64,000 bases of DNA from an uncultured bacterium. Lineage in GTDB: Bacteria > Actinomycetota > Acidimicrobiia > Spongiisociales > UBA5794. Under the pieces are notes generated by a model that did no database searches, was not told where the DNA came from, and saw only the letters and a program-made list of their open reading frames with translations. The DNA lies in assembly GCA_963801165.1 (NCBI GenBank), contig CAWDDT010000007.1, forward strand, positions 32,001 to 96,000, written 5' to 3'. Below, in pieces: positions 4,756 to 40,154 of this stretch (the first letter of the stretch is position 1; each line of letters begins with the position of its first letter). Both the position numbers and the translations under genes were made by a program.

Positions 4756-4774
4756 CAACCGGAAAGGAACACAC

Positions 4775-6797: not shown

Positions 6798-6806
6798 CGA
6801 GGGTGT

Positions 6807-6845
6807 AGCTCATTGCGGCGGCGGGTGGCCGCTGTCGCATGAGCT
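6807..6845 (+). terminator. Stem-loop closing the methyltransferase operon
   Basis: AGCTCA-TTGCGGCGGC...GCCGCTGTCGCA-TGAGCT imperfect inverted repeat ~10 nt after the stop codon. Confidence 0.55.
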
Positions 6846-23116: not shown

Positions 23117-23755
23117 TCACAGCAACTTGCCGTCGCCTTCCCGGCCATGGACGAACCAGATCGCCCGCACCGGCTCATCTCCCTCGTTGAATAGCCGGTG
23201 GGGTCGCGTCGAGTCGAAGGCGATCGAGTCGCCCGGGTGCAGCTCGTACTTCTGGAAGCCGATCTGGATGCTCAGAACACCCGAGATCACATAGCCGTAC
23301 TCGCGGCCGTGATGGCGCATCAGCGACTCGTCGGGCGTCGACGCGCCTCCGACCTCATAGGTTGCGTGAAGAAAGTCAACAGTGTCTTCCGGGACAGGGT
23401 TGAGGTCTTCCCACCTCACCCCCGAGTCGAGGTCGATGACCCCACGATCCCGAGGATGGACCAGGGGAGCGGTCGGATGCGACGGGTTCCGGGGAGGCTC
23501 GTCGCCATCGTGGTAGTCCTCGCCGCGGATCACCCTGTCCAGGGAGACGTCGAGCTCGGTGACGATGGCGTACAGCGTGCCCACCGAGGGTTTCGACTGA
23601 CCGCTCTCGATCTGCGAGATCATGCTCGCCGATAGGCCGAGACGGCGGGCGAGCTCGCGCTGGCTCAGCCCGGCATTGACCCGTTCCTCCCGGAGCCGAT
23701 CAGCGATTCCGTCGAGTCTCTCCTGCACCCTGGCGTCCCCATGTGCATCAGTCAC
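23117..23755 (-). CDS. XRE-family HTH regulator with cupin sensor domain
   Basis: LSQRELARRLGLSASMISQIE.G...PS; H.GREYGYV..G, GDSIAFDSTRPH. Confidence 0.92.
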   Translation of the reverse strand: MTDAHGDARVQERLDGIADRLREERVNAGLSQRELARRLGLSASMISQIESGQSKPSVGTLYAIVTELDVSLDRVIRGEDYHDGDEPPRNPSHPTAPLVHPRDRGVIDLDSGVRWEDLNPVPEDTVDFLHATYEVGGASTPDESLMRHHGREYGYVISGVLSIQIGFQKYELHPGDSIAFDSTRPHRLFNEGDEPVRAIWFVHGREGDGKLL

Positions 23756-24444
23756 AGCAACATCCAGCCGCCGTCAACGTAGAGGTTGGTGCCGTTCATG
23801 GCGGGGTTCTCGAGCAAGAATTCCGTTGCCCCCACGATGTCGGCCATGGTGGCGAGCCGCCGGGTCGGCGTTCGCTCGATCACCGCATCGAGCGGCTTGT
23901 CCTTCCAGAAGGGGCTGTCGCCGACGATCCCCGGGTGGAGGGCGTTGAAGCGCACCGGCGCAAGTTCGATTGCCAGGGTTCGGATCAGGCTGCTGACACC
24001 GCCGTTGACGGTAGTCACCGTTGTCGATCCGGGGTAGGGACGGTCCTTGGCGCGACCGCCGAAGAGCACGACGGACGCGTCATCGGTGAACCGTGAGATA
24101 AGGGTGTGGACCGTCTCGGTGTAGCCGACCAGCTTCATTGTCGTCAGGTACATGGCACCCGGGATGGTGTATTCCCTGATCGGGTTGTTGTCCCGGGCGA
24201 TGGCGAGCAGCACCAGACGGGACACCGGTCCGATGCCGGCGAGGGCAGATGAAATCGTCTCCGGCTCCGCCATGTCGAACGCGATTGCGGAGACATCTCC
24301 GCCGAGGTCTGCAGCGACCCGGTCTGCCTTTGCCTGATCCCGACCCGTGATGACAACGGAGGCGCCCCTGTCCGCATAGTGACGAGCCACCTCGCGTCCG
24401 ATCCCCCCGGTGCCCCCAACCACGACCACTGTGCCATCTGCCAT
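23752..24444 (-). CDS. SDR family oxidoreductase (atypical)
   Basis: GGTGGIG, LAIELAPVRFNALHPG, VDGG; no canonical YxxxK. Confidence 0.85.
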   Translation of the reverse strand: MADGTVVVVGGTGGIGREVARHYADRGASVVITGRDQAKADRVAADLGGDVSAIAFDMAEPETISSALAGIGPVSRLVLLAIARDNNPIREYTIPGAMYLTTMKLVGYTETVHTLISRFTDDASVVLFGGRAKDRPYPGSTTVTTVNGGVSSLIRTLAIELAPVRFNALHPGIVGDSPFWKDKPLDAVIERTPTRRLATMADIVGATEFLLENPAMNGTNLYVDGGWMLL

Positions 24445-24523
24445 CGTTCACCTCTCCTTTGCATCCGGCGGACTGTCTCCCGGTTCTACCTGTTAGCGAG
24501 GATAGACGTCCGAAGGCGACAGC

Positions 24524-24541
24524 GTGTAGTGTCGCTGGACA
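24524..24541. promoter_or_regulatory. Probable operator/-10 element, copy 1
   Basis: GTGTAGTGTCGCT is identical to 25796-25808; imperfect TGT..N..ACA dyad. Confidence 0.5.
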
Positions 24542-24563
24542 GACTAGCCGATCAAATGAAGGT

Positions 24564-25781
24564 GTGGACATCACAAACGAAAGATTCGATGTGTGCGTTG
24601 TCGGTGGTGGTCTCGTCGGGCTCGCCGTCGCCAGAGCTATCGCCCACGGATTCGTTGGTGCCTCGATTCTCGTACTGGAGAAGGAGGGCGAGGTTGCAGC
24701 GCACCAGAGCAGCCACAACAGCGGCGTGGTCCACTCCGGCCTCTACTACCGGCCGGGCTCGCTCAAGGCACGGCTGTGTGTCGTCGGACGCAAGGATGTG
24801 TATGACATGTGCGCCGACTACGACATCCCTTACCGCGTGTCGGGAAAGCTCGTGATCGCAACGCGGTCGTCCGAGATGGCAGCGCTTGATGAGTTGGAAC
24901 GGCGTGGACGGGCCAACGGCCTGACCGGGCTCCGCAGGCTTGGAGCCGCAGAAATTACCGAGATCGAGCCCGCTGCCGCAGGGTTGGCGGCGCTCCATGT
25001 ACCGGAAGCCGGCGTCGCCGACTACCCGGCGCTGGCTCTTTGCCACGTCTCGGCGCTCGAGAGCGTGGGAGCCGTGGTAGTCACCGGGGCCGCTGTGGTC
25101 AGGATCGAGCACCTCGAATCGGGCGTTGCGGTTACCACATCGAGCCAGCGATATGTCGCACGGACATTGGTGAATTGCGCTGGTCTGCACGCCGACCAGG
25201 TGGCGGCGATGGCAGACGTCGAGTCGAGCATCAGGATCATCCCGTTTCGTGGCGAGTACTACCGGATGGCGCCGGAAGCGGCGGGTCTGGTGCGCAGCCT
25301 CATCTACCCGGTGCCCGATCCACGCTTTCCCTTCCTGGGCGTCCACTTCACCAGGAGGATCGACGACACCGTAGAAGTCGGGCCAAATGCGGTCCTGGCG
25401 CTCGGACGCGAGCATTACCGCGGAGCGGCGCCGGATTGGTCCGAGCTGCGTTCGGTGATCGCCTATCCGGGTTTCCGCAGACTGGCGGGACGTCACTTGC
25501 TGTCGGGGACGAAGGAACTGGTCAACTCCAGGTCGACCCGGCTTTACGCCCGCCTGGCGCGCCGTCTGATTCCGGCGCTGCGTCGCGATCACCTCCTCAC
25601 CGGCGGTGCCGGGGTGCGAGCCCAGGCGGTCGATGCGCAGGGCAATCTCGTTGACGACTTCGTCATCGAAACGGCTGGCGCGACGGTCCACGTTCTCAAT
25701 GCACCTTCACCGGGCGCAACAGCCAGCATTGCCATAGGGAAATACGTCGCCGCGAAAATAAAACCCCTTTTGTCCCACTAA
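24564..25781 (+). CDS. lhgO: L-2-hydroxyglutarate oxidase family FAD oxidoreductase
   Basis: VVGGGLVG, HQSSHNSGVVHSGLYY.PGSLKA, PFRGEY, IYPVPDP.FPFLGVHFT, GVRAQA, NAPSP.AT. Confidence 0.88.
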   Translation: MDITNERFDVCVVGGGLVGLAVARAIAHGFVGASILVLEKEGEVAAHQSSHNSGVVHSGLYYRPGSLKARLCVVGRKDVYDMCADYDIPYRVSGKLVIATRSSEMAALDELERRGRANGLTGLRRLGAAEITEIEPAAAGLAALHVPEAGVADYPALALCHVSALESVGAVVVTGAAVVRIEHLESGVAVTTSSQRYVARTLVNCAGLHADQVAAMADVESSIRIIPFRGEYYRMAPEAAGLVRSLIYPVPDPRFPFLGVHFTRRIDDTVEVGPNAVLALGREHYRGAAPDWSELRSVIAYPGFRRLAGRHLLSGTKELVNSRSTRLYARLARRLIPALRRDHLLTGGAGVRAQAVDAQGNLVDDFVIETAGATVHVLNAPSPGATASIAIGKYVAAKIKPLLSH

Positions 25782-25795
25782 ACACCGAATCTGAT

Positions 25796-25812
25796 GTGTA
25801 GTGTCGCTAATC
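25796..25812 (+). promoter_or_regulatory. Probable operator/-10 element, copy 2
   Basis: GTGTAGTGTCGCT, with TAGTGT (TAnnnT) 8 nt before ATG 25813. Confidence 0.5.
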
Positions 25813-26706
25813 ATGGTTGAGGACCAGCGTACTGTGGCAGTGATCGGCCTCGGCACCATGGGAAGCGCGATGGCTCGCCGCCTCCGGGGTGCTGGGTACG
25901 AGTTGACCGTTTGGAATCGCAGCCGCTCGAGAGCCGAGGCACTGGCGTCCGAGATCGGCGCAACCGTCGCCCCAACCGCAGCCGAGGCGGCGAAGACGGT
26001 CTCGATCACCATCACCAGTCTCGCCGACGACGCGGCGGTGGAGGCGGTCTACCTGGGAGCGGATGGGATCGTCGCCGGGATCGGCCCCGGGACGATTGCC
26101 GTCGACACCAGCACTGTTGATCCGGATACGATTCTCCGAGTCGGGAACGCCGTTGATGCGACGGGTGCGGAGTTCTTCGATTGCCCGGTGTCCGGGAGCG
26201 TGGCGACGGTCTCGGCCGGCGCGTTGACGATGATGGCCGGCGACCAGGGTGATCTCGTCGGGCGGGTTGAGCCGGTGCTGCTGTCGTCGATCGCCACGCG
26301 TGTCATCCGGGTCGGGCCCCGCGGCTCGGGATCCGCCTGCAAGCTCGCAGTCAACGGTTTGCTCCACGGTCTCAACGTCGCGCTCTCCGAAGCGCTCGTG
26401 CTCGCGGAGAAGGCGGGTATCAAGCGGAATATCGCATACGAGGTCTTTGCCGGTGGTGCGGGAGGTGCTCCGTTCGTCCAATACAAGCGAAACGCCTACG
26501 AAAACCCGGAAACGGCGCCGGTGGACTTCAGTCTCGAACTGGTTCTCAAGGATCTCGACCTGATCACAGGTCTCGGCGAGAAGGTCGGCGCACCTATGGA
26601 TCAAGCCGAGACCGGTCGAGCGATCGTGCGCGGGGCAATAGCCGCCGGCTTCGGCGGCAGGGATCTGAGTGCGATCGCGATGTACCTGCGAAGCGAGGCG
26701 GAATAA
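25813..26706 (+). CDS. Beta-hydroxyacid (3-hydroxyisobutyrate-like) dehydrogenase
   Basis: IGLGTMG, VWNRS, DCPVSGS, CKLAVN, KDL. Confidence 0.88.
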   Translation: MVEDQRTVAVIGLGTMGSAMARRLRGAGYELTVWNRSRSRAEALASEIGATVAPTAAEAAKTVSITITSLADDAAVEAVYLGADGIVAGIGPGTIAVDTSTVDPDTILRVGNAVDATGAEFFDCPVSGSVATVSAGALTMMAGDQGDLVGRVEPVLLSSIATRVIRVGPRGSGSACKLAVNGLLHGLNVALSEALVLAEKAGIKRNIAYEVFAGGAGGAPFVQYKRNAYENPETAPVDFSLELVLKDLDLITGLGEKVGAPMDQAETGRAIVRGAIAAGFGGRDLSAIAMYLRSEAE

Positions 26707-27632
26707 TGGCCAACCACATCGTCAAGAAGACAACCGACCTGTTCCACACCGCACCCGCAGAGTTCGTTCGGAGGAGCACGGGATACACGACGGCTGCGAT
26801 CGTCGACGAGGAAGGCGGTGCGGTCCAGATGGGCTTCCGGATGGCTCGTCTCGACCCGGGGGGCAGCGTGGCCGCCCACGTTCACTCCTTCGAAGAGACC
26901 GTTTACGTCATTGACGGTTCGCTGGTCGTCGACACGCCGGACGGAAGCCGGCGGCTGTCCACCGGCGACTACGGGCTTCTGCCCGTCGGGCTAACCCACG
27001 CCTTCCGCAACCCGGGGTCCGCCCCCGTCGAGTTCGCCGAGATGAAGGCCCCGCTGCCGCGAGCCCGTTTCGACTTCGATACACAGTTCCCCGAACCGCT
27101 GACCACAACCGACCCGCAGCCGATCGATGTCAGGGACCCGCGCAACCTGAGCTTCGGGCACATCGACCCCGAGTCCATGGACCCCACCCTGCAAACCCAG
27201 AACCGTCTTGCGCTCAGCGCCAGCATGCGCACCGCGTTGCTCGTCTACAGCGGGATCACCGTGAAGATGATGATCGACTCCGATCTCGGAGCGGACCTCT
27301 CGACGATGTTCATGGTGCAATACGAGCCGGGCGGCTTTGCGGGAGCGCACGACCATCCGCTCGAGGAGGCGTATCTGATCCTCGCCGGGGAGGTCGAGGC
27401 GACCTTCGACGGGAACGTCTACCAGCTCGGACCGGGTGACATCGCCTGGGCAGGCGTGGGCTGCGTCCACGAGTTTCACAACCTGGGCACCGGCTTCGTC
27501 AGATGGTTGGAGACTCAGGCGCCGCAGCCGCCACCCCGGCACTCCTACAGATTTGCCCGTGACTGGACCTACCTCGAGAACCTGCTTGCCATACGCACAG
27601 AAAAGACCAATGAAGAAGGAGGGGCCCAATGA
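26706..27632 (+). CDS. Bicupin protein
   Basis: Two metal-binding cupin motifs: HVHSFEE...H and HDHPLEE...H. Confidence 0.85.
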   Translation: MANHIVKKTTDLFHTAPAEFVRRSTGYTTAAIVDEEGGAVQMGFRMARLDPGGSVAAHVHSFEETVYVIDGSLVVDTPDGSRRLSTGDYGLLPVGLTHAFRNPGSAPVEFAEMKAPLPRARFDFDTQFPEPLTTTDPQPIDVRDPRNLSFGHIDPESMDPTLQTQNRLALSASMRTALLVYSGITVKMMIDSDLGADLSTMFMVQYEPGGFAGAHDHPLEEAYLILAGEVEATFDGNVYQLGPGDIAWAGVGCVHEFHNLGTGFVRWLETQAPQPPPRHSYRFARDWTYLENLLAIRTEKTNEEGGAQ

Positions 27633-28882
27633 ACGAGTTTCCGGTAGCCACCAGTCCCGCCCCAGGGGTGATGGGCGTCGATTGGGAGAATCGAGTCGAC
27701 TTCGAGCGCCTTCGCCAGTATCGCCTCGCCCGGGTGAAGAAGATGCTCGAGCAATTCGACCTGGGTGCAGTGCTGTTGTTCGAGACGTCGAACATCCGGT
27801 ACGCCACCGCCACCCAGATCGGGTATTGGGCGTTCAACAAGGGGGAGCGCTATGCGCTCGTCACCAGAGACAGCCGGCCCCGCATCTGGGACTTCGGCTC
27901 TGCCGCCAAGGCGCATCGTTTGCAGCTGCCGCACATGTACGACACGGAGAACACGGTAGGGGGCAACACGGGCCTCCAGGGTGCCATTGGGCCGGAGACC
28001 GGTCTCCATTCCGGTGCGGCACGCGAGATCAAGGCAGTGCTCGAAGCGGAGGGACTGGCCGGCGAGAAGCTGGGAGTCGACCTCGCCGAGACCGGCGTCT
28101 TCCTGGCGCTGCAAGCCGAGGGTCTCAACGTCGTCGACGGGCAACAAGCAATGATGCACGCCCGCGAGATCAAGAGCCAGGACGAGATCATCCTGCTCAC
28201 CCAGGCATGCGCCATGGTCGACGGCGTCTACCAGGACATCTACGAAGCTCTGAAGCCGGGAGTGCGGGAGTCGGACATCGTCGGTCTTGCTCACGCCCGG
28301 CTCTTCGAGATGGGCTCGGAGTTCGTCGAAGCGATCAACTCGATCGCCGGCGAGCGCTGCAGCCCGCACCCGCATGTATTCAGCGACCGCCTGATCCGCC
28401 CCGGCGACCAGGCCTACTTCGACATCATCCACGTGTTCAACGGCTATCGGACCTGTTATTACCGGACGTTCGTCGTCGGACGCGCCACCCAGCCGCAACG
28501 TGACGCCTTCAAGCAGTCACGCGAGTGGATGGATGCCGCCATCGAGTTGGTGCGTCCGGGAACCACGACCGATCAGATCGCCAAGGTTTGGCCGCGGGCG
28601 GAGGAGTTCGGGTTCGAGAACGAGATGGATGCGTTCGGCCTCCAGTTCGGTCATGGGGTCGGTGTCGGCCTCCACGAGCGTCCCATCATCAGCAGGCTCA
28701 ATTCGCTCGACTCTCCCGTCGAGATCGAGGAGGGCATGCTCTTTGCGCTCGAGACGTACGCCCCGGCCTCAGACGGGCGGTCGGCGGCGCGCATCGAGGA
28801 GGAGGTCGTCGTCACCGCAGACGGCTGCAAGGTGATCACGCTCTTCCCGTGCGAGGAACTGATGGTCGCCAATGCATACTGA
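27629..28882 (+). CDS. M24 (Xaa-Pro aminopeptidase/creatinase/DddP-fold) hydrolase
   Basis: NIRYAT, REIKS.DEI, GHGVGVGLHE.P, FALET, RIEEE. Confidence 0.87.
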   Translation: MNEFPVATSPAPGVMGVDWENRVDFERLRQYRLARVKKMLEQFDLGAVLLFETSNIRYATATQIGYWAFNKGERYALVTRDSRPRIWDFGSAAKAHRLQLPHMYDTENTVGGNTGLQGAIGPETGLHSGAAREIKAVLEAEGLAGEKLGVDLAETGVFLALQAEGLNVVDGQQAMMHAREIKSQDEIILLTQACAMVDGVYQDIYEALKPGVRESDIVGLAHARLFEMGSEFVEAINSIAGERCSPHPHVFSDRLIRPGDQAYFDIIHVFNGYRTCYYRTFVVGRATQPQRDAFKQSREWMDAAIELVRPGTTTDQIAKVWPRAEEFGFENEMDAFGLQFGHGVGVGLHERPIISRLNSLDSPVEIEEGMLFALETYAPASDGRSAARIEEEVVVTADGCKVITLFPCEELMVANAY

Positions 28883-30983
28883 TCCCCGATACGACTATGC
28901 ACAGCGTCAACCCCGCCCTCCGCAGCCGGTCGATGCCGGCCTTCTCGAAGCGGACATACCCGTCGAGGTGCGGCTGAGCCTGTATCGCAAGCTCCAGGAG
29001 TTGCGGCAGTGGGGCAAGCGCACCCACGACCTGTTCCTACAGAACCTCGTGAAGGGCACAAGCCACCTCTCGCTCGGCATGGAGGCGATCGCCACCGGTT
29101 TCGCCGCTGCCATGGAGCCCGACGACTACACGTTCGCCACATACCGGGGACACGGCCACAGCCTGGCGCGCGGCATGGGCCCCGGTCCGGCGCTGGCCGA
29201 GATGCTGGGACGGGAGAACGGCATCCTCGGTGGCAAGGGCGGGTCCATGCATCTCACCGATGTGGAGCACGGGATGATGGGCTCGTACGCCATTGTCGGC
29301 GCCCACATGTGCGTCGCCAACGGCGCCGCCTGGTCGGCGCAGATGCGCGCCAGCGGCCAGGTAGCTGTGTGCTTCTTTGGTGACGGAACCACCAACATCG
29401 GTGCGTTTCACGAAGCCCTCAACCTGGCGAAGATCTGGAACCTCCCGGTCGTGTTCGTGTGTGAGAACAACCTCTACATGGAGTACACGCCGATCGACCT
29501 GATCACCGCCGTGCCCCGGCCCGCCGCTGATCGTGCCCCGGCATACGGGCTGGATTCGATCGTCATCGACGGCAACGACCCCGACGCCGTGTACCTCGCC
29601 GCCCGCGAGGCTCTCGGACGGGCCCGTGGCGGCGACGGCCCGAGCCTCATCGAAGCCATCACCTATCGCAGTGGCGGTCACTCGCGGGCCGATCCGGCCA
29701 AGTATCGGCCGCCTGTCGAAGTCGAGGCATGGAAGGAACGCGACCCGATCACCGTCTACCGTTCCCGGCTGGTCGATCTGGGCACGGCAGCCGAGACCCT
29801 CGACGCCATCGAGCACGAGGTGTCGGTGGCTATCGACGCCGCGACCGAGTTCGCCAAGAACGGGCGGGAGCCCGGGGAGGACACGCTGCTCACCGACGTC
29901 TACGCCGACGGCGGCTCGCGCTGGCGCAACGGCACGCCGGAGAACCCGGTCGGGAGCGGTCCCGCCCCGGCTGCAATCTCTGCAACGGGCGGCACCTCGA
30001 CCCTCAGTTACCGCGAGGCGGTCGCCAGAGGCATCGCCCAGGAGATGCGGCGCGACCCGAGACTGGTCATGCTCGGCGAAGACGTCGCCGCTGCCGGTGG
30101 TGTGTTCAAGACAACGGTCGGCCTACTCGACGAGTTCGGGCCGGACCGGGTGCGGGACACGCCGATCTCGGAACAGGCCATCATCGGCGCCGCCATGGGT
30201 GCTGCGATGACCGGCACACCAGTGATCGCCGAGATCATGTTCTCCGACTTCCTCGCCGTCTGCTGGGACATGGTGGCCAACGAGATCGCCAAGAGCCGGT
30301 ACATGACCAACGGCCAGGTCAGCTTCCCGCTCGTCATCCGGACCGCAAACGGCGGCGGCGCCCGCTTCGGCGCCCAGCACTCCCAGAGCGTGGAGAACTG
30401 GGCCATGGCCATTCCCGGCCTCAAGGTCGTCGCCCCGTCATCCCCTGCGGACGTGGTCGGGCTGCTGGCCGCCGCGATCCGCGACCCCGACCCCGTCGTG
30501 TTCTTCGAGCACAAGGCGCTGATGGCGGCCAAAGCCGAGGTTCCCGACGGTGAGATCGTCGATCAGCTTGGTGTCGCCAGGGTGTTGCGCGAGGGGACCG
30601 ATTGCACGATCGCGGCGCTTGCCCTCATGGTGCCGAGGGCTCTCGAGGCGGCCGAGCAACTCGCCGGCGATGGGATCTCGGTCGAGGTCATCGACGTGCG
30701 CTCGCTCGTCCCCCTTGACACCGAGACGATCCTCGCCTCGGTGTCCAAGACCGGCCGGCTCTTCACGGTCGAAGAGAACCCCCGGTTGTGCGGGTGGGGA
30801 GCGGAGCTCGTTTCGATCGTCGACGAAGAGGCCTTCTGGAGCCTCGACGGTCCCAGCATCCGGATCACGACGCCACACATCCCGCTCCCGTCGGCAGCTG
30901 CGCTCGAGGACCTGGCAATGCCGTCGGCCGAGCGAATCTACACCACGGTTGCGAAGGCCCTGGAAGGTGGGGGCATGGAATGA
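28872..30983 (+). CDS. Fused TPP-dependent 2-oxoacid dehydrogenase E1 alpha+beta
   Basis: TYRGHGH, GKGGSMH, GDG...ENN, GHSRAD; then GEDV, DTPISE, HSQ, FEHK. Confidence 0.92.
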   Translation: MHTDPRYDYAQRQPRPPQPVDAGLLEADIPVEVRLSLYRKLQELRQWGKRTHDLFLQNLVKGTSHLSLGMEAIATGFAAAMEPDDYTFATYRGHGHSLARGMGPGPALAEMLGRENGILGGKGGSMHLTDVEHGMMGSYAIVGAHMCVANGAAWSAQMRASGQVAVCFFGDGTTNIGAFHEALNLAKIWNLPVVFVCENNLYMEYTPIDLITAVPRPAADRAPAYGLDSIVIDGNDPDAVYLAAREALGRARGGDGPSLIEAITYRSGGHSRADPAKYRPPVEVEAWKERDPITVYRSRLVDLGTAAETLDAIEHEVSVAIDAATEFAKNGREPGEDTLLTDVYADGGSRWRNGTPENPVGSGPAPAAISATGGTSTLSYREAVARGIAQEMRRDPRLVMLGEDVAAAGGVFKTTVGLLDEFGPDRVRDTPISEQAIIGAAMGAAMTGTPVIAEIMFSDFLAVCWDMVANEIAKSRYMTNGQVSFPLVIRTANGGGARFGAQHSQSVENWAMAIPGLKVVAPSSPADVVGLLAAAIRDPDPVVFFEHKALMAAKAEVPDGEIVDQLGVARVLREGTDCTIAALALMVPRALEAAEQLAGDGISVEVIDVRSLVPLDTETILASVSKTGRLFTVEENPRLCGWGAELVSIVDEEAFWSLDGPSIRITTPHIPLPSAAALEDLAMPSAERIYTTVAKALEGGGME

Positions 30984-32290
30984 GCGAGCGGGTGCTCATC
31001 AGAGGCGGGACGGTCCTATCGATGGACCGCTCGGTGGGCAACATGATCACGGGAGACGTCTTGATCGAGGACGGCACGATCACCGAGGTCGGGCCCAAGC
31101 TGCGGTCCCGCAACGCCGAGACGATCGACGCAACCGACACGATCGTGATGCCGGGTTTCGTCGACACCCATCGCCACGCGTGGCACGCTCTGTTCCGGAA
31201 CACGGCGCTGTCGTCGTTGGCGATCGAGCCTGCCACCGTCGGTCGGCATTGCGCCGCCGACCACGTCTATGCCGCGACGCTCGTCGGGCTGTTGGGTGCG
31301 GTCGAAGCCGGGATCACGACTGTGGTCGATTGGGCCGATATCGCGGGTGACCCGCAGGCGGTCGAAGCAGCGCTCCAGGCGCATGCCGATGCCGGGCTGA
31401 GAACCGTCTTCCTCGTGACGAGGCCGGCGTGGAGCGCCGAGCATTTGGAAATGGCAAGGCTGCGATCGGTCGTGACAAGGGCTGTGGGCCCCGAGCTGAC
31501 GTTCGGTTTCGGTGCCACAGATCCCGATCCCTCCGATCTCGAGCGTACGACGCAGGAGTGGGCCGCGGCCCGAACCGAAGGTCTCAGGATCCACACGCAC
31601 GCGGGAGGCGACCCGAAATCCCGCGGGGCCATCGCCCGGCTCGCTGCATCAGGTCTGCTCGGCGACGACGTCACCCTGGTTCATTGCACATATCTCGACG
31701 GAGATGACCTCGATGCGGTCGCCGCGGCGAAGGCGACCGTCGCGCTCACTCCGGCAGCCGAGATGACCGGCGGGGTGGGGACCCCTCCGTTGCAGGCGCT
31801 CATCGACCGGCGGATCAGGCCCGGTCTTGGCATCGGGAGTGCCGTACAGGCTCCCGGGGAGATGTTCGCCCAGATGCGGTCGGCTAACTCGCTGCAGCAT
31901 GCCACCCTCTTCGATCTCAAGCTGGCCGGCAAGGGCGGCGTGCCCAACCTCCTGACGACAAGGGACGTGATCAAGTTCGCCACCATCGACGGGGCCGTTG
32001 TCGCCGGGGTCTCACAGAAAACCGGGTCGCTGACGCCGGGCAAGCGTGGCGACGTCATCGTGCTACGAACCGATCGGCCCAACATTGCCCCCATCAACGA
32101 CCCGATCGGCGCAGTCGTGTGGGGGATGGACACCTCCAACATCGATTATGTGTTCGTCGCCGGTCGAGGCCTTGTTCGCGAGGGTTCGCTGACCGCCGAC
32201 GTGGCTCGAGCCCGGGACCTGGCGGCACAGGCACAGGCCGAGGTGATGGCCGCCGCGGGGCTCCTGAGCACGGCGGTGAAGCCGTCATGA
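30980..32290 (+). CDS. Amidohydrolase superfamily protein (MTA/SAH deaminase-like), lacking the beta-8 Asp
   Basis: PGFVDTHRH, GITTVVDW, IHTH, VHC, GSLTPGKRGD; GIGSA where D is expected. Confidence 0.85.
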   Translation: MSERVLIRGGTVLSMDRSVGNMITGDVLIEDGTITEVGPKLRSRNAETIDATDTIVMPGFVDTHRHAWHALFRNTALSSLAIEPATVGRHCAADHVYAATLVGLLGAVEAGITTVVDWADIAGDPQAVEAALQAHADAGLRTVFLVTRPAWSAEHLEMARLRSVVTRAVGPELTFGFGATDPDPSDLERTTQEWAAARTEGLRIHTHAGGDPKSRGAIARLAASGLLGDDVTLVHCTYLDGDDLDAVAAAKATVALTPAAEMTGGVGTPPLQALIDRRIRPGLGIGSAVQAPGEMFAQMRSANSLQHATLFDLKLAGKGGVPNLLTTRDVIKFATIDGAVVAGVSQKTGSLTPGKRGDVIVLRTDRPNIAPINDPIGAVVWGMDTSNIDYVFVAGRGLVREGSLTADVARARDLAAQAQAEVMAAAGLLSTAVKPS

Positions 32291-33339
32291 CCACCCGGAA
32301 GACGACATCCTCGGCCGTGACCTCGTTCGTGGTCGCGTCGCGCTACATGCCGGTCTTCGTGGCTCTACTTCTGCTCATCGTTGTCGCGGCGATCTGGGTG
32401 CCGGAGACTCTGGGCGCAGTCCCCCTGGCGGCCATCGCACCGTTCGGAGCGTTGCTCGGGATCACCGCACTCGGTCAGATGCAGGTAGTCATGACCGGCG
32501 GGATAGACCTGAGCACCCCTGGCACCCTGACTCTGGCGGCGATGATCATGGTCGGCGTCGGGGATGGATCCGACGACCGCATCTGGATTGCCGCGTTTAC
32601 CGCAATCGCCGTCGCTGCCTTGATCGGACTGGTGAACGGCATCCTCATCGGCGGCATCAAGCTCAATCCGCTCATCGTCACTCTCGCCGTCGGTCAGGTC
32701 GTCGCCGGGATGGTCAGCCGCTACGTACGCACATTCCCGATTCAAAGCGCGGTCCCGAAGGGGCTTTCCGATTGGACCGCCAAGCGGATCCTCGGCGTCA
32801 GCCCGATCTTCTGGATCGGCATCGTTGTCGCCCTGCTTCTCATGGTCGGCCTGCGCTACACCACCGCGGGGCGCCGGTTCAAGCTCGTGGGAGCGAACCC
32901 CGTGTCGTCGCAGGTGGTCGGAGTACGGGTGACGTTGACGCAGATCCTCGTCTACGTGGTGGCGTCAATGTTCTATGCGATTGCCGGCATTGCTCTCGCC
33001 GGTCTCATCCGCAACCCGGGCGTCAACATCGGGTCGCCCTATCTGCTCGGTCCGATCGCGGCCGTTGTCATCGGCGGCGCTTCCCTGACCGGTGGTCTGG
33101 CCAGCCCGGTGTCCACGATGGTCGCCGCCTTCTTCCTCACAGGTCTCAATCAGATGATGCGCTCGCTAGGGCTGGCGACTGCGCTCCAGTTCGTTGTATT
33201 CGGTCTCGTGATCATCGGCGGCATGTTGCTGTCCGGAGATCGGATCATCCGGGGCGTGGAGCAGGTTCTGCGGGAGCGCCGCAAGCCCGACAGCGAGGGC
33301 AAGGGACAGACAGCGATGGCGACGAGTGAGCCGGGTTGA
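32287..33339 (+). CDS. Sugar-type (RbsC-like) ABC permease
   Basis: GGIDLS, LIVTLA, GANP..S..VG, IAAVVIGGASLTGG. Confidence 0.9.
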   Translation: MTTRKTTSSAVTSFVVASRYMPVFVALLLLIVVAAIWVPETLGAVPLAAIAPFGALLGITALGQMQVVMTGGIDLSTPGTLTLAAMIMVGVGDGSDDRIWIAAFTAIAVAALIGLVNGILIGGIKLNPLIVTLAVGQVVAGMVSRYVRTFPIQSAVPKGLSDWTAKRILGVSPIFWIGIVVALLLMVGLRYTTAGRRFKLVGANPVSSQVVGVRVTLTQILVYVVASMFYAIAGIALAGLIRNPGVNIGSPYLLGPIAAVVIGGASLTGGLASPVSTMVAAFFLTGLNQMMRSLGLATALQFVVFGLVIIGGMLLSGDRIIRGVEQVLRERRKPDSEGKGQTAMATSEPG

Positions 33340-33394: not shown

Positions 33395-34789
33395 ATGAGA
33401 CTGAGCAAGATCGTCGGCCTGATCGCAGTGCTTGCGATGGTGGCCGCCGCGTGCGGGGGCGACTCCGGCAGTACGACGACGACGACGGCAGGTGCCGCCG
33501 AGACAACGACGACTACAGCCGCGGCGACGACAACAACCGGAGCGACCGCGACAACCGAGGCTACGACGACGGCGGCGCCGGGGGGCGACAACCCGCTGGC
33601 CATGTACGGCGAAGATCCCACGGCAGCAGACCCGGCGCTGGTCCTCAAGGCGCTAGGCCCCGTCGACCCATCGGACGAAGCCAGCTGGAACATCATCCTG
33701 GCTTCCATAGCTCGCGCCAACCAGAACCTCGACGAAGCCACCATTACCAAGGCGATGGACTGCTGGCGCAACCAGGAGTGCGACACCGGAAGTGGCGGCG
33801 ACCTGGTGATGGGCTACGCCGACGGCGGCGGTGACACCGTCAACGTGTGGCGCGGTGTTAGCCACATGGAGGCAATCCTCCAGGCACTCAGCTATCCGGA
33901 AATCGGGACAATCGTGTCAACGGCGGCCAACTTCGATCAGGACCCGGCAGTGCACGCCAACGACATCCGCTTCCTGATCCAGCGTGGTGTCGACTTCATC
34001 GTCGGATACCCCGATGTTGGTGTTGCTCTTGCGCAGGCAGTCTCCGAAGCGGAGGCGGCAGGCATCCCGTACCTCTCCTTCTCGGCCGGCTATGTGGGCT
34101 TGCCGGGTCAGGAGGGTGCGCTCGTTCCCGGTCAGGATTACACCTCGGTGGTTGGTGAGGATCTCTGCGCCCTCGGGAAGAGCTTCGCCGACGTGCTGAA
34201 CCAGGGAGTCGGTACAGGTAAGGTCGGCATGCTCGGTGGGACACCCGGCAATGCCCTGACGCTCGGCTGGCAGCAGTGTGCGGTGGCGGCCCTTGCGCCT
34301 GGTGTCGACCTGGTCAACCCACCCGCAGACACAAACTCGACAACAGGCGACACATACTGGGTCAACTCGTTTGCGCTCGACGCGGTGCGGGGCCTGCTGA
34401 CGACCAACCCCGACATCAAGGGCTGGGCGTACGAGTACTCGGATGGCCTCTACACCGCCCTCCAGGCGTACGACGAGTTGAACATCCCGGTGGCGAACCT
34501 GACGGTGGCGCTGCGTACGGACGAGCAGACCCTGTTCTGCGACTGGGCGGATCGCAACGAACCGACGTACAACATCTGGTACTCGGCCGGTGGCAACTTC
34601 CAGTCCCGCACTGCGGTGACCGCCGCCATGCTGGCGCTCCAGGGCGCTGAGGTCCCAGGTCAGATCATCGTGCCCCACGTGATGAGACAGGTCACCAAGT
34701 CGGACTGCAACCCGGATCGGGTCAACGCGGTCGTGTCGGGGACCTCGCTCGTGCCCGACGCCGTGCTGCAGCAGATGTTCGGCGGCTGA
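33395..34789 (+). CDS. ABC substrate-binding lipoprotein (type I PBP-like, divergent)
   Basis: Lipobox VAAACG, Thr-rich linker, LIQRGVDFIVGYPD, LGGTPGN; AGGAGG RBS. Confidence 0.85.
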   Translation: MRLSKIVGLIAVLAMVAAACGGDSGSTTTTTAGAAETTTTTAAATTTTGATATTEATTTAAPGGDNPLAMYGEDPTAADPALVLKALGPVDPSDEASWNIILASIARANQNLDEATITKAMDCWRNQECDTGSGGDLVMGYADGGGDTVNVWRGVSHMEAILQALSYPEIGTIVSTAANFDQDPAVHANDIRFLIQRGVDFIVGYPDVGVALAQAVSEAEAAGIPYLSFSAGYVGLPGQEGALVPGQDYTSVVGEDLCALGKSFADVLNQGVGTGKVGMLGGTPGNALTLGWQQCAVAALAPGVDLVNPPADTNSTTGDTYWVNSFALDAVRGLLTTNPDIKGWAYEYSDGLYTALQAYDELNIPVANLTVALRTDEQTLFCDWADRNEPTYNIWYSAGGNFQSRTAVTAAMLALQGAEVPGQIIVPHVMRQVTKSDCNPDRVNAVVSGTSLVPDAVLQQMFGG

Positions 34790-34815: not shown

Positions 34816-36381
34816 ATGGACCATGAGCTAGTTCTCGAGATGCAGGGCGTGTCTCGCCAGTTCGGGGCGGTGCGAGCGCTGACGAACGTCAGCTTCGAGT
34901 GCCGCGCCGGTGAGATACATGCGCTGGTTGGTGAGAACGGCTCGGGGAAATCGACGCTCCTCGGGGTTGCTTCAGGATTCGTAGACCCCGACCTGGGCAC
35001 GGTGTCGATCGGGGGCAACCGGCTGCGGCGGGACTCTCCCGCCATGGCCCGCAAGCTCGGTCTGGCGATGGCCTATCAGGACGGCTCGTCCGTCCACGCC
35101 GAGCCGGTCAAGAACAACTTGTATTACGCCGCGCGTCCGGCCCAGCGGCCGCCGTACTGGCGCAGGAAGAAGTGGGCGCGCCGGGTGCTGGCGGAGTTTG
35201 ACCTGGACCTCGAGCTCTTCCCCGACGCGCCTGCCGGTTTCTTGACGCTGGCCGAGCGCCAGCTCTTCGAGGTAGCGAAGGCACTCGTGACCCATCCCAG
35301 GGTGCTGCTCCTCGACGAGCCGACGACGGCCCTTGGACCCGATGAGGTCGAGGCCCTGCACCGCACCGTGGTCGCCTGCCGGGACCGGGGTGTCGGTGTG
35401 GTGTATGTCAGCCACCGGCTGCCCGAGGTGCTCGAGGTCGCAGACCGGGTGACCGTCCTCCGCGACGGGACGCATCAGGGGACGTTCGACGCCAGGACGA
35501 CGAGCGAATCGGAGCTCGTGGAGCGAATCGTCGGGCGTCCTTTCGATGCGGCCTTCCCACCCCCGGCAACGTCACCGGACGATGGCGAGGAAGTGTTCGT
35601 CGTCGACGCCCTGCAAGGGCAGTCGTTCGGCCCGGTCAGCTTTACGCTGCGCCGGGGCGAGATAGTGGGGATCGCCGGCGCCGAAGGCAACGGCCAGCCG
35701 CAGCTCTTCGACTGTCTCGCCGGTCGGGTTCCTCCCCGTACCGGGCGCGTTGTATGCGACGGCAAGGAGCTGACGCTCATCTCTACCCACGAAGCGGTCG
35801 GTGCGGGGGTCATGCTGCTGCCGGGAAATCGCAAGCAGGAGGCCCTGATGGGAGTCCTCGGGGTGAAGGCGAACATCACGATCCAGTCACTAAAGAAGTT
35901 CTCACGGTTCGGCCTGCTGCGAAGGCGGGCGGAGCGGGTCGCGGTCAAACGGCTCGTGGATGAGATGGAGATCAGAACCCCGTCGCTCGACCAGCCGGTC
36001 GAGTTTCTCTCCGGCGGCAACCAGCAGAAGGTGTCGGTGGCCCGCTCGTTCCTCAGAGAGCCTGCGGTGATCCTGGCTTACGAGCCGACCCAGGGGGTCG
36101 ACGTTGGATCGCGCTTCGATATCTACAAGGCGCTGCGAGCCCGGGGGGACGCCGGGGCCGCCCTGCTCGTCAAGTCCAGCGACCCGATCGAGCTCTCGGG
36201 GCTGTGCAACCGCGTTCTGGTCATGTCACGGGGCACAATCATCGAGGAGATTCCCGGCGACGAGCTCGATGAGGTGCGCATTGTCGAGGCGATCGTGCGC
36301 GGTCCGGGAATGTCGAAGGCGGCCCGGTCGCCGCTGGGCGTTGCCATGCCCAAGGCCCCGATCCGCAAAGAGGCATCATGA
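34816..36381 (+). CDS. Sugar-type (RbsA-like) ABC ATP-binding protein with two NBDs
   Basis: GENGSGKST, LLDEPT, VSHRL; LSGGNQQKV. Confidence 0.93.
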   Translation: MDHELVLEMQGVSRQFGAVRALTNVSFECRAGEIHALVGENGSGKSTLLGVASGFVDPDLGTVSIGGNRLRRDSPAMARKLGLAMAYQDGSSVHAEPVKNNLYYAARPAQRPPYWRRKKWARRVLAEFDLDLELFPDAPAGFLTLAERQLFEVAKALVTHPRVLLLDEPTTALGPDEVEALHRTVVACRDRGVGVVYVSHRLPEVLEVADRVTVLRDGTHQGTFDARTTSESELVERIVGRPFDAAFPPPATSPDDGEEVFVVDALQGQSFGPVSFTLRRGEIVGIAGAEGNGQPQLFDCLAGRVPPRTGRVVCDGKELTLISTHEAVGAGVMLLPGNRKQEALMGVLGVKANITIQSLKKFSRFGLLRRRAERVAVKRLVDEMEIRTPSLDQPVEFLSGGNQQKVSVARSFLREPAVILAYEPTQGVDVGSRFDIYKALRARGDAGAALLVKSSDPIELSGLCNRVLVMSRGTIIEEIPGDELDEVRIVEAIVRGPGMSKAARSPLGVAMPKAPIRKEAS

Positions 36382-38846
36382 CCGCCGAGATGCGAGCCAC
36401 CGGCATCGACCGGATACGTCAGCTCGGCCGCAAGCTGGTGCGCAACGCCCGTGACAAGAACAAGTGGCGCAAAGTAGTCAAGGTCCGGCTCTGGATGCCG
36501 GTCGTGCTCCAGATCTTGTTGATCATGGCCCTCCTCTGGTACACCAGCACCCGCTTCAACGGGTTCATCAATCAGGCGAACATCCTCAACATCCTGCTGC
36601 TGGCAATGCCGCTCTCCCTGGCCGCGATCGCCCAGACCCATGCGATTCTGGTCGGATACCTCGACCTGTCGGTCGGTGCGATGATCAGCTTCGGGGTCGT
36701 TGCCGGCTCCTTCCTCATGGGCGCCGACGCGTCGGCAGGCCAGATCGCTCTCGCGATCCCGGTCATCCTCGGCTGCGGTGTCGGTCTCGGTCTGGTCAAC
36801 GCCGGTCTGATTCGTGGGTTCAGGATCCCGTCGTTGATTGCAACTCTCGCCACGTTGAGCATTCTCGACGGGATCTCGCTGACGCTGCGACCTTCCGCAC
36901 AAGGGGTCATCAGCGGCGACCTGGTTTCCGTTCTCACCAAGCGCATTGGACCGATCCCCATCGCCTTCGTCGTCATCGTCGTCGGTGCCGTGCTTCTCGA
37001 CGTTTGGCTGCATGCCTCGGGGTCCGGGCTTGCGGTGCGGGCGGTCGGATTCGACGAGCGGGCGGCCAAGCGGGGCGGGATACCCACAAACTGGATTCGG
37101 GTGCGGGCGCTGATTCTCTCCAGCCTGCTGGCGGCCGTCGCTGCGTTCTTCGTGATGGCTAGATCGCCGATCGGTAATCCCCAGATCGGCTCTCCCTTCG
37201 CGTTGAACAGCATCACCGCAGCCGTTCTCGGCGGTGCATCGCTGGCGGGAGGCCGGGCGACATTCGTCGGCAGTACGGTCGCCTCCATTTTGCTCGCCTT
37301 GATCATCTCTGTGCTGCCGTTCCTGGGCCTGTCTCCGGACGACGGCTCGATGATCATCGGTCTGCTCGTGCTGATCGGGATCGTGCTCTTCCAGGTCGGG
37401 GATCTCAAAGAGTTGGTCAAGCGCAACTTCAGGCGAGCCCGCCGGCTTGTTCTCGGCAGCGGGGTCGTCGACAAGACGGAGATCCCGGCGTTCTACCCGC
37501 AGGGGACAGACTTCGCGGTTGTCCCCACCGGCCGGAAGTTGATCAAGAACGGCATCATCTTGACTCTGGATCAGACCATTGGAGATCTCCTCCCCGGGGA
37601 TGTCCTCATCGAGGATGACCGAATCGTCCGGGTGGCCCCGGAGATCGCCGTCGATGGCGCCGAGGTCATCGATGCCACCGGGATGATCGTGATGCCGGGC
37701 TTCATCGATACTCATCGCCACATCTGGGAGGGTCTGCTGCGCAACCTCGGCACCGATGTTCCGCTGGAGGGGAGGACGAGCTACATATCGTTCGTTCTCC
37801 ACAAGCTGGCGCCTGCCTTCCGTCCGGAGGACGCCTATGTGGGCGACCTCGTGTCGGCTCTCGGTGCTATCGATGCCGGGGTCACGACGTTGCTCGACTG
37901 GTCGCACATCCAGGGGTCACCGGCTCACACCGATGCAGTCGTCCAGGCGTTGAACGACTCCGGGATGCGTGCCGTCTTCGCCTATGGCTTTCCTTGGTGG
38001 GGCAAGTGGGAGGAGCGCCAGCCGAGCTGGTTCGTCCGCGCCGCCACCGAGCACTTCTCGACGCAGGACCAGAAGCTGTCGCTCGCCCTGGCGGCTCCCG
38101 GTCCCGAGTTCACGGACTTCGAAGTATCCCGGGACCATTGGAAACTGGCGAGAGAGACAGGCGCCAGGATCACCACCCACGTCGGGGTGGGCAGCTACGG
38201 ACTGGACTCAAAGGTGCAGGAGATGGGCGAAGCCGGCTTGCTCGGTCCCGACACGACTTACATCCACTGCACGACCCTCAACGACACCGAGATCCAGATG
38301 ATCGTCGATACCGGGGGGACCGTCTCGCTTGCTTCGCCGGTGGAGATGATGATGGGTCATGGCATGCCGCCGATCCAGAAGTTCCTCGATCGCGGCCTTC
38401 ATCCCAGCCTCAGCGTCGATGTCGAGACAAACGTGCCCTCCGACATGTTCAATCAGATGCGCTCGGTGCTCGGTTTGCAGAGGAACCTGGCCGCGGCGAG
38501 CGGGCGGGATCCGATCTCGGCCCGCGACGTGCTGTCCTACGCGACCATCGAGGGCGCCCGGGCCACCGGGCTCGATGCCAAGGTGGGAACCCTGACGCCG
38601 GGCAAGAAGGCCGACCTCATCCTGTTGCGGACCGACCGGATGAACGTCACTCCGCTCAACGACCCGGTGACCTCAGTTGTGCTCGGCATGGACACGGGCA
38701 ACGTCGACACCGTGATCATCGACGGCAGGATCATGAAACGCAGCGGGAAGCTGCTGCACGTCAACTGGCCGGCGCTGCGACGCCAGATCGACGAGTCACG
38801 AGATCATGTGATCGCCAAGTCGGGTTTCCGTCTCCCGAAGATCTGA
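36378..38846 (+). CDS. Fusion of an RbsC-like ABC permease (N-term) and an amidohydrolase (C-term)
   Basis: LDLSVG, LIATLA, ITAAVLGGASLAGG, then in the same frame PGFIDTHRH, THV, IHC, SVD, GTLTPGKKAD. Confidence 0.88.
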   Translation: MTAEMRATGIDRIRQLGRKLVRNARDKNKWRKVVKVRLWMPVVLQILLIMALLWYTSTRFNGFINQANILNILLLAMPLSLAAIAQTHAILVGYLDLSVGAMISFGVVAGSFLMGADASAGQIALAIPVILGCGVGLGLVNAGLIRGFRIPSLIATLATLSILDGISLTLRPSAQGVISGDLVSVLTKRIGPIPIAFVVIVVGAVLLDVWLHASGSGLAVRAVGFDERAAKRGGIPTNWIRVRALILSSLLAAVAAFFVMARSPIGNPQIGSPFALNSITAAVLGGASLAGGRATFVGSTVASILLALIISVLPFLGLSPDDGSMIIGLLVLIGIVLFQVGDLKELVKRNFRRARRLVLGSGVVDKTEIPAFYPQGTDFAVVPTGRKLIKNGIILTLDQTIGDLLPGDVLIEDDRIVRVAPEIAVDGAEVIDATGMIVMPGFIDTHRHIWEGLLRNLGTDVPLEGRTSYISFVLHKLAPAFRPEDAYVGDLVSALGAIDAGVTTLLDWSHIQGSPAHTDAVVQALNDSGMRAVFAYGFPWWGKWEERQPSWFVRAATEHFSTQDQKLSLALAAPGPEFTDFEVSRDHWKLARETGARITTHVGVGSYGLDSKVQEMGEAGLLGPDTTYIHCTTLNDTEIQMIVDTGGTVSLASPVEMMMGHGMPPIQKFLDRGLHPSLSVDVETNVPSDMFNQMRSVLGLQRNLAAASGRDPISARDVLSYATIEGARATGLDAKVGTLTPGKKADLILLRTDRMNVTPLNDPVTSVVLGMDTGNVDTVIIDGRIMKRSGKLLHVNWPALRRQIDESRDHVIAKSGFRLPKI

Positions 38847-38853: not shown

Positions 38854-40035
38854 TTACGGTATCTCCCCGGCGAACTGGATCATCCCCCACTCACCATCGG
38901 TCAGCCACGTGGGGTCGGTGGCCAGGGCGTCCCGCGCCACCGCGGGGGCGACGCCGGCCGCAACCAGGGACTTGGCCGCACGCACCGCCAGCAGCGGCTG
39001 GAGCGGACGCACGATCTTCTCGAATGGTGTCGTCGGGTCCCAATGGAGGTCGCCGAGCAGCCTCCTGTAGTTGGCGTCACCCTTGACGATGACCAGGTCG
39101 GCCTCCGCCAGGTAGTCGACGAGGTCGGGTGGGCACTCCCAGAAAGGCAGAGGGGACACCCAGAAAGGATGCGTCGTGACAACTAGAGACCCGTTGCCCC
39201 GGCTCTTGGTGAGGATCCCGGCAACCTCGGACGCCGGTGCCGGCTCGGTGGCGAGACGGGCAATCGTCGCTTCGAAATCGGGGAGTGTCACATCCGATAC
39301 GAACGTCGGGTGCGGTTTGAGGTGGATGGTCACCCGGCCGCCGCGGCCGAGGACATGTGCCGTAACCATGAGGTCGGCAACCAGCTCGGCGCCGGCATTG
39401 TCGAGAATCAGGTGCACGGAGTTGGAACCTTCGCCGAGCAGCTCGACGGCGCGATCTGTGTCGTCCGCCAGGAGCCGTTCCGAGCGGTTCAATCCGAGGA
39501 TGTCGGCTGTCCGAGCCGCCGCTTCGCGCTCACCGGCCGGCCACAGGCTGAGATCCACGCGGTTGGCCCACAGTGAAGCTGCGAGCAAGATCGGAAGCTC
39601 GTCGACCACATGCCCGAGCCGCCCGCCGAGGGGAACGGCGCCATCGAGCCCGATCGCCTTCTGAGCGGTGAACGGGTCGACACCCTCACGGTCGCCCGGC
39701 TGCGAGTACCCCGTTGCTGCCAGCAGCCGCCGGTAGAAGTACGTCTCGGCGAAGAACCACGGGATGTCGCGCCAGGTCATACCCAAATACGGTGCGACGT
39801 ACTCCTTCCAGGCGGCGGCGTCGGAGAGGAGCGGCTCGTCGATCTCTGCGACGACGCCCTCGTGTATCTCGGCCACGAGCGCTTCGACGAGGCTGGTCCG
39901 TGTGGCGTCGAGCTCGTTCTCGGCGAGGGTCCGGCGTGCGATGTCGGGGAGCCTGCGCATGACGGACTCTTCAGTGAACGTACCGATCTCGTTGGCTCGA
40001 AGCGAAGCTGGTCGCGGGTGCTTTGGTGGGATCAT
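38854..40035 (-). CDS. Damage-control phosphatase, ARMT1/DUF89 family
   Basis: PWFFAETYFYRRL, LWANRVDLS, ILDNAGAEL..D, FVSD, KGDANYRRL. Confidence 0.88.
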   Translation of the reverse strand: MIPPKHPRPASLRANEIGTFTEESVMRRLPDIARRTLAENELDATRTSLVEALVAEIHEGVVAEIDEPLLSDAAAWKEYVAPYLGMTWRDIPWFFAETYFYRRLLAATGYSQPGDREGVDPFTAQKAIGLDGAVPLGGRLGHVVDELPILLAASLWANRVDLSLWPAGEREAAARTADILGLNRSERLLADDTDRAVELLGEGSNSVHLILDNAGAELVADLMVTAHVLGRGGRVTIHLKPHPTFVSDVTLPDFEATIARLATEPAPASEVAGILTKSRGNGSLVVTTHPFWVSPLPFWECPPDLVDYLAEADLVIVKGDANYRRLLGDLHWDPTTPFEKIVRPLQPLLAVRAAKSLVAAGVAPAVARDALATDPTWLTDGEWGMIQFAGEIP

Positions 40036-40154
40036 CGGCTTTCTCTTGGTCTTTGAGGGGCTGAACGATAACGCCACGAGAAGGGGCCACCTCCGCGGCT
40101 GGCCAGTCTCACGTCGGTAAGATGCCGCTCCGCGGTACGGGGACAGATGGCCAT

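Follow-up and report, generated by a model that had tools for sequence, protein, structure and literature searches.

The stretch of DNA analyzed here (hereafter, the window) comprises 64,000 nucleotides, positions 32,001 to 96,000 of contig CAWDDT010000007.1 (assembly GCA_963801165.1) from an uncultured bacterium of the class Acidimicrobiia (order Spongiisociales), and carries a gene in which one permease of an ATP-binding cassette (ABC) importer, P2, and an enzyme of the amidohydrolase family, Amh2, are encoded as a single chain, P2::Amh2. The gene and its parts are as follows:

36378..38846, forward strand: permease::amidohydrolase fusion gene (P2::Amh2), 822 aa, ATG start
36378..37406, forward strand: permease half, residues 1-343, a basic N-terminus followed by ten transmembrane helices, of CUT2 / BPD_transp_2 type (Pfam, hydropathy, AlphaFold2)
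37407..37532, forward strand: linker, residues 344-385, of constant length in the best 120 clusters of fused proteins
37533..38843, forward strand: amidohydrolase half (Amh2), residues 386-822, with H446, H448, H601, H630 and D681

A single 822-aa permease-amidohydrolase open reading frame had already been described at this position in a first-pass annotation made from the letters of the window, and the frame, its translation (zero internal stops) and the domain profiles all bear this description out. In Pfam, BPD_transp_2 (PF02653) matches residues 68-333 (E 3.2e-24, 85.9 bits vs. a cut-off of 26.8) and Amidohydro_1 (PF01979) matches residues 437-785 (E 1.3e-31, 110.5 bits vs. 25), and the NCBIfam model NF006056 (PRK08204 subfamily) covers residues 386-815 (507.1 bits vs. 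391). The permease half belongs to the CUT2-type family (Pfam BPD_transp_2) by profile, helix count and operon partners, with none of the sugar-importer NCBIfam equivalogs searched (AraH, RbsC, YjfF, LsrC/D and AlsC) being reached (the best, AraH, scoring 97.4 bits vs. 378). The start codon of the fusion gene overlaps the stop codon of the preceding ATPase gene (ATGA), and its own stop lies seven bases away from that of a convergent ARMT1-like damage-control phosphatase gene (38854-40161, reverse strand).

The basic linker named in the same annotation, KELVKRNFRRARR, occupies residues 344-356, and the whole linker can be divided, following its AlphaFold2 model, into a basic helix extending the tenth transmembrane helix (344-358), a low-confidence stretch (359-370) and the N-terminal extension of the enzyme (371-385). 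The junction DNA is free of stops, and no convincing Shine-Dalgarno sequence with a start codon could be spotted in it by eye (no formal test), just as had been stated before. Positions 37380-37560, at which it had seemed advisable to look for an assembly error, show no indel in the contigs of three DNA runs, taken from soil and salt-marsh metagenomes, that cover them, a single contig from one of these (run X2) covering 36900-37771 gap-free.

The fusion is genuine, of long standing and kept under selection, being neither an artefact nor a recent accident. A word-indexed protein search gave 2782 proteins at E <= 0.001 among 8000 scored candidates, the best 120 clusters of which were used for comparison: all 120 are fused (813-825 aa, 78-100% identity), all hold PF02653 and PF01979 in one chain, and residues 330-424 are indel-free in their alignment. 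The two families, which the first-pass annotation had proposed to look for in one chain, are joined in every one of these clusters, and the concern voiced there, that the homologues might all prove to be two separate genes or that the junction might hide an indel, has not materialized. The database labels borne by the fused proteins are only “amidohydrolase family protein” or automatic deaminase names. Among seven orthologues (21 pairs, dS about 1), the ratio of nonsynonymous to synonymous substitution rates (dN/dS) was 0.23 for the permease, 0.15 for linker residues 344-362, 0.42 for linker residues 363-385 and 0.13 for the enzyme, i.e., both halves are under purifying selection. The top 150 matches in a 50%-identity library include one full-length fused representative (P0121), all the other full-length relatives among them being stand-alone enzymes of at most 56% identity, and the ESM Atlas holds one cluster with both families (63 members).

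As to how far the fusion reaches, it is found uninterrupted and at full length in eight of 41 related genomes, with G000 counted among the 41 (G000, G031, G014, G035, G018, G034, G015 and G021), with the copy of G036 being cut by a contig end and those of G005 and G030 being present as adjacent pieces. Of 401 genomes sampled from the class, 43 gave an unbroken match to a query spanning the junction (residues 300-470), or 42 of 400 if the unpublished G279 is set aside, and all 43 fall within five families of one order. When a distant permease was used as the query in a phylum-wide sample, 14 of 401 genomes responded, including ten of the 22 genomes of family f76 and two of the 19 of family f69, both of which are related to the window at the level “same phylum” only. 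Four of those twelve other-class genomes were fetched (G688, G749, G719 and G484), and all four carry the same operon, their fusion being 72-74% identical to that of the window over residues 7-11 to 822. As this is similar to the identity seen within the window's order (71-87%), it hints at a horizontal spread of the whole module between classes. Within the window's own genus, the distribution of the fused operon is patchy (G014 and G005 among 14 other genomes), which likewise suggests such a spread.

Forms in which the fusion might have come apart again were looked for among the short homologues, of which 27 of the 120 listed were inspected. In 24 of these, the similarity extends past the final helix and reaches the linker or the enzyme, 13 then ending within 0-6 residues (many of them labelled partial) and 11 adding 9-75 unrelated residues, and a further two are broken within that helix and read on in another frame. 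In the remaining one, P0289 (447 aa, on a 1663-base contig), the permease breaks off after its last helix and gives way to an alpha-amylase domain, most likely because the contig is chimeric. The seemingly split forms in G005 and G030 proved to owe their appearance to one extra base each inside a continuous coding sequence, with no stop-and-start arrangement. No clean re-split form was therefore found among the 27 short homologues and the two split-looking genomes. Few-contig assemblies at this locus (L025 of G014, L029 of G005 and L036 of G484) have many frameshifts across several of its genes and, as the neighboring genes are also broken in G005, G014 and G484, the splits are read as assembly errors or recent pseudogenes rather than as two separate genes. 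A two-gene operon ancestral to the fusion was not found either, the locus search with the stand-alone permease P0371 giving three distant matches (24-28% identity). A chain of other composition, P0267 (1265 aa), holds a related permease in a permease-ATPase-permease arrangement with no amidohydrolase.

The AlphaFold2 model (mean predicted local distance difference test score, pLDDT, 80.8; predicted template modeling score, pTM, 0.64) shows ten membrane helices, from 36-59 through 320-358, the last of which extends through the basic stretch to residue 358, whereas the chain from about residue 371 onward packs on the enzyme, most of which is modeled with a pLDDT above 90. There are 12 Lys/Arg among the first 35 residues and seven Lys/Arg within the 13 residues that directly follow the last helix. 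Given the even number of helices, the basic N-terminus and the basic tail, both ends of the permease should lie inside according to the positive-inside rule, which would place the enzyme half in the cytoplasm. When the full model was submitted to Foldseek, only amidohydrolases were matched, and no solved chain spans both halves.

In the enzyme half, the HxH motif, the two later histidines and the strand-8 aspartate pointed out at first pass all align with the metal ligands of PDB entry 3hpa (HxH = H446/H448, strand-5 His = H601, strand-6 His = H630 and strand-8 Asp = D681), and all five are kept in 120 of the 120 best-listed fused clusters, in which V604 and E683 are likewise invariant. Profile, ligand set and barrel fold place Amh2 in the ATZ/TRZ-like group as a member of NF006056, the Foldseek template modeling scores (TM-scores, target-normalized) to 4v1x, 3hpa, 4gbd and 1j6p amounting to 0.82-0.89, and guanine deaminases also being among the matches. 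The solved enzymes AtzA (4v1x), 3hpa, isocytosine/8-oxoguanine deaminase (7ww2) and MTA/SAH deaminase (4f0r) share with Amh2 the fold (target-normalized TM-score 0.82-0.88) and the aligned set of four histidines and one aspartate, but are only 19-26% identical to it, are not fused to a membrane protein and do not have its valine in place of the HxxE glutamate.

This last difference, which had gone unnoticed at first pass, bears on the chemistry. In nucleobase/nucleoside-type deaminases of the ATZ/TRZ-like group (cytosine, guanine, 8-oxoguanine and MTA/SAH deaminases), the HxxE motif that follows strand 5 contributes a catalytic glutamate. Amh2 reads HVGV (the second valine being V604) where 3hpa reads HLAE, and the glutamate is absent across the subfamily, stand-alone relatives included. 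As the glutamate is missing, the canonical deaminase mechanism, and with it deamination by Amh2, is doubtful; the scores to all deaminase equivalogs in NCBIfam are far under their cut-offs. The earlier suggestion that the imported solute is “hydrolysed or deaminated” at the cytoplasmic exit is thus supported in part, a working tethered enzyme being the simplest reading of the invariant metal ligands combined with the predicted cytoplasmic side.

Some relatives of the enzyme half occur in quite different settings. The stand-alone proteins P0127 and P0129 (about 50% identical to it) begin with twin-arginine-like export signals, and a crude motif match finds an RR motif in 23 of 125 stand-alone relatives, so part of the enzyme subfamily seems to work outside the cytoplasm. 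On L020 (G018:C2), a stand-alone enzyme sharing 66% identity with the fused domain and another creatinase-like M24 hydrolase stand back to back (5020-6444, reverse strand, and 6311-7816, forward strand), next to a molybdopterin xanthine-dehydrogenase-type subunit (2704-4947, forward strand), which means that the amidohydrolase-M24 pairing recurs away from the transporter. Downstream of the gene for a thiamine-dependent E1 enzyme, the other-class genome G688 has a third paralogue of the amidohydrolase (L033 11933-13315), which shares 43% identity with the fused domain.

P2::Amh2 is the last gene of a five-gene core, preceded, in this order, by a free paralogue of Amh2 (Amh1), a second permease (P1), a lipoprotein binding protein and a two-domain ATPase, and this core is present in nine of the nine loci fetched first and in the four fetched later from the other class. 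The features of the window upstream of the fusion gene are:

23117..30983, both strands: linked catabolic genes, namely a helix-turn-helix (HTH)-cupin regulator (reverse strand), an SDR (reverse strand), an L-2-hydroxyglutarate-oxidase-like flavoenzyme, a HIBADH-like reductase, a bicupin, a creatinase-like M24 hydrolase and a fused E1 alpha-beta thiamine enzyme
30980..32290, forward strand: Amh1, 39% identical to Amh2, no signal peptide, ATGA overlap with both neighbors
32287..33339, forward strand: permease 1 (P1), 350 aa, no fused domain
33395..34789, forward strand: substrate-binding lipoprotein, lipobox AAAC, Thr/Ala-rich tether, Peripla_BP_4 at 61.8 bits vs. 35.1
34816..36381, forward strand: ABC ATPase, 521 aa, two ABC_tran stretches, i.e., two nucleotide-binding domains in one chain

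ATGA overlaps are found at three junctions (E1/Amh1, Amh1/P1 and ATPase/fusion). The binding protein is weakly similar to solved sugar-binding proteins (best E 1.3e-5) and has no NCBIfam match at E 1e-5; its mature form exceeds typical Peripla_BP_4 proteins in length by about 100 residues, and the long Thr/Ala-rich tether after the lipobox (33395-33650, forward strand) was responsible for a spurious “New_glue” Pfam match. The HTH-cupin regulator, the bicupin, the creatinase-like M24 hydrolase, the fused E1, the SDR and the HIBADH-like reductase travel with the core elsewhere, albeit in a varying order. In the window, the L-2-hydroxyglutarate-oxidase-like enzyme scores 495 bits vs. a cut-off of 299, and a succinate-semialdehyde-dehydrogenase-like enzyme is also present. 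Taken together, these neighbor annotations suggest that the imported solute may be a small nitrogen-containing organic compound, loosely acid or lactam-like, although no pathway emerged from them. The E1 enzyme (28872-30983, forward strand) is an alpha-beta fusion of 703 aa in one chain with no E2/E3 gene nearby; it is likewise a single open frame (651-656 aa) in two other-class genomes (L033 9934-11901 and L034 9943-11895), and in G021 (L022 11674-13694) the E1 halves match in different frames.

Amh1 has been losing what Amh2 retains. In the window, a glycine replaces its strand-8 aspartate, and this aspartate is absent from six of the nine Amh1 copies of the fetched loci (the window being counted and the frameshifted G005 copy left out), with two histidines also lost in G021 and the strand-6 histidine in G015. 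All five residues are present in 57 of 121 Amh1-family sequences, and the other 64 lack at least one ligand, 60 having a glycine at the aspartate position. This state changed at least 11 times on the Amh1 tree. Amh1 and Amh2 come out as sister clades with weak support (0.55), and the root-to-tip distance is 2.2 for Amh1 vs. 0.99 for Amh2. In having lost a catalytic residue while its gene is kept in conserved synteny (all nine and all four loci), Amh1 resembles what is commonly understood as a pseudoenzyme.

As the pump has two different permeases, there would be one enzyme domain per pump, and it is for this reason that Amh1, a possible partner not noticed at first pass, was considered as the missing half of a dimer. 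The Amh1-Amh2 pair prediction scored 0.95, the best control scoring 0.00 and the mark used being reached by 58 of 80 solved complexes and two of 110 mismatched pairs; contact agreement between runs was at least 93%, and the partner was modeled with a pLDDT of at least 90. Conservation at the predicted interface of Amh1 is 0.81 vs. 0.70 elsewhere on the protein, which was matched by one of 5000 random sets. Amh1 is, in our opinion, likely a non-catalytic partner of Amh2.

The reading that we favor, at a probability of roughly one half, is that a tethered asymmetric enzyme pair (Amh2, probably completed by Amh1) hydrolyses the imported solute at the cytoplasmic face as it is being delivered. P2 would be one of the two membrane subunits of a CUT2-type importer, itself asymmetric and made up of P1, P2::Amh2, a single ATPase chain with two nucleotide-binding domains and the lipoprotein binding protein, and a catalytically competent ATZ/TRZ-like metal hydrolase would sit on the cytoplasmic C-terminus of P2 via a short tether of fixed length. 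Amh1 would probably supply the second half of the dimer that is usual for this enzyme family and, as a partner, might be free to lose its own catalytic aspartate, while the solute would be hydrolysed beside the pump on its release; hydrolysis and transport might even be kinetically coupled. Of such a coupling, which would resemble the group translocation and channeling envisaged at first pass, it is the physical tether that is shown.

Several points weigh against this reading. Since ABC import runs in one direction as it is, there is no need for a “trapping” step, and the AlphaFold2 model places the enzyme relative to the permease without confidence (pTM 0.64, linker pLDDT about 50). The sole contig from an RNA library (159 nt, one metatranscriptome run) lies at 37924-38063 and does not extend across the junction. 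In many lineages Amh1 may itself be catalytically active, judging by the 57 of 121 sequences that keep all the ligands. Since the solved members of the amidohydrolase family have been deposited as two or more chains, the pair score may merely echo their homodimers, an Amh1-Amh2 heterodimer and an Amh2 homodimer not being separable in this way. The interface of Amh2, for its part, is conserved no more than the rest of the protein (0.877 vs. 0.879), and as the interface positions adjoin active-site loops, the conservation seen in Amh1 has other possible causes as well.

What, then, could the fusion be if not a tethered hydrolase working on the solute as delivered? It could be mechanically trivial, a stop-codon loss that ensures equal dosage and a rough co-localization of an enzyme acting on the free cytosolic pool with no channeling, Amh1 being a separate enzyme of the same pathway that decays in some lineages. 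Stand-alone permeases (41-49% identity) end 20-25 residues past the last helix with a similar basic tail, and the alignment of P0124, the nearest stand-alone enzyme, begins at residue 374, and so the tether looks like essentially an old permease tail joined to an old enzyme N-terminus. Such a linker would be yielded by plain stop-codon loss with no new function needed. Gene junctions in this operon are already ATGA overlaps, and residues 363-385 are the least constrained segment of the chain. Against a mere accident of this kind speak the linker length, which is the same throughout the best 120 clusters, the constraint on residues 344-362, which is as strong as that on the enzyme, and the persistence of the fusion in different classes and over a dS of about 1, no clean re-split having been met with in the 27 short homologues and the two split-looking genomes; we regard this explanation as possible but doubtful. 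That the gene is an assembly artefact or a pseudogene was also tested and rejected: several relatives are indeed frameshifted near the junction, but those assemblies carry breaks in other genes too, and the frame is intact in all 120 best-listed clusters and in 43 genomes, free of indels in the contigs of three runs and under purifying selection on both sides of the linker.

Alternatively, the enzyme-like half might serve as a sensor or a brake, with occupancy of its pocket by substrate or product feeding back on the ATPase or the permease (trans-inhibition). Regulatory domains are known on ABC importers, albeit on ATPase subunits rather than permeases, and the short tether of fixed length would suit such a role; a pure sensor, however, would not need five catalytic/metal ligands to be invariant, and no confident contact between enzyme and permease is predicted. 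Nothing was thus found in favor of the feedback on transport that had been entertained in the first-pass annotation, and the idea appears improbable to us. No better placed is a cut after synthesis that would free the enzyme as a soluble protein. A parallel would be YtgC-YtgR of Chlamydia trachomatis, in which, according to the published account (PMC6504234), an ABC metal permease is joined to a DtxR-like DNA-binding repressor that is then cleaved off; like P2::Amh2, it combines the permease of an ABC importer with a cytoplasmic C-terminal domain that is not itself part of transport, but the partner in P2::Amh2 is an enzyme with intact catalytic ligands, and there is no sign of cleavage. Disorder is predicted for residues 359-370, but the locus showed neither a site for a protease nor a gene for one, and a constant linker length with a constrained stretch at 344-362 would be superfluous for cutting and releasing. 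Least credible among the functional alternatives is an extracellular enzyme half processing a precursor whose product is then captured by the binding protein: the twin-arginine signals of some stand-alone relatives (such as P0129) might speak for it, but the even number of helices, the strongly basic N-terminus, the cluster of Lys/Arg after the last helix and the lack of a signal peptide on the predicted partner, Amh1, all argue for the opposite side of the membrane.

Hydrolysis of the solute by a tethered enzyme pair is the reading that we consider most likely. Its boldest form would be the first ABC “import-and-hydrolyse” machine, in which the hydrolase-bearing permease and a decayed paralogue form an asymmetric dimer beside the ATPase, the solute is handed straight to one active site in each cycle, and the whole module has passed from one actinobacterial class to another in one piece; this we put forward tentatively, as something we would sooner doubt than believe.

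Compared with what is known, the parts themselves are ordinary; what is out of the ordinary is that they are coupled covalently, that this coupling is conserved and that a partner is decaying. With CUT2 importers (RbsC/AraH/LsrC-type), the system shares the Pfam family, the ten-helix model, two different permeases, a two-domain single-chain ATPase and a lipoprotein binding protein, but it differs from the CUT2 sugar systems in that no equivalog is reached, the binding protein is barely similar to sugar binders and one permease carries an enzyme of 437 residues. Couplings of transporters to enzymes include SulP-carbonic anhydrase fusions, LplT-Aas, group translocation by the phosphotransferase system and UgpQ with the Ugp importer, in all of which a metabolic step takes place at the transporter, as it might here, but which involve other transporter classes or non-fused partners. 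To our knowledge, a fusion of an ABC importer permease with a catabolic hydrolase has not been known before, as had also been claimed at first pass for catabolic enzymes and characterized permeases, and none was found described in the full-text literature searches made. For Amh1, a parallel is offered by the aspartate transcarbamoylase of Pseudomonas, whose inactive dihydroorotase-like subunit is an amidohydrolase-fold pseudoenzyme acting as a structural partner. Both are decayed paralogues kept beside an active partner, but in the case of Amh1 the active partner is a member of its own family and is attached to a permease, and the aspartate is lost in about half of the Amh1 relatives.

For primary active importers, the case for a physical coupling between uptake and the first catabolic step usually rests on gene neighborhood alone, whereas in P2::Amh2 the link is covalent and kept across at least two actinobacterial classes with a tether of invariant length. 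A clean system for testing substrate channeling in an ABC importer is thereby on offer, in which it could also be asked: how does a dimeric enzyme adapt to being attached 1:1 to an asymmetric pump? The fusion also links an uncharacterized PRK08204 subfamily, in which the glutamate of the deaminases is lacking, to a binding protein open to ligand screening, which would make for a practical route to the substrate. Should the fusion be a dosage device only, it would amount to a tidy Rosetta-stone link and little more.

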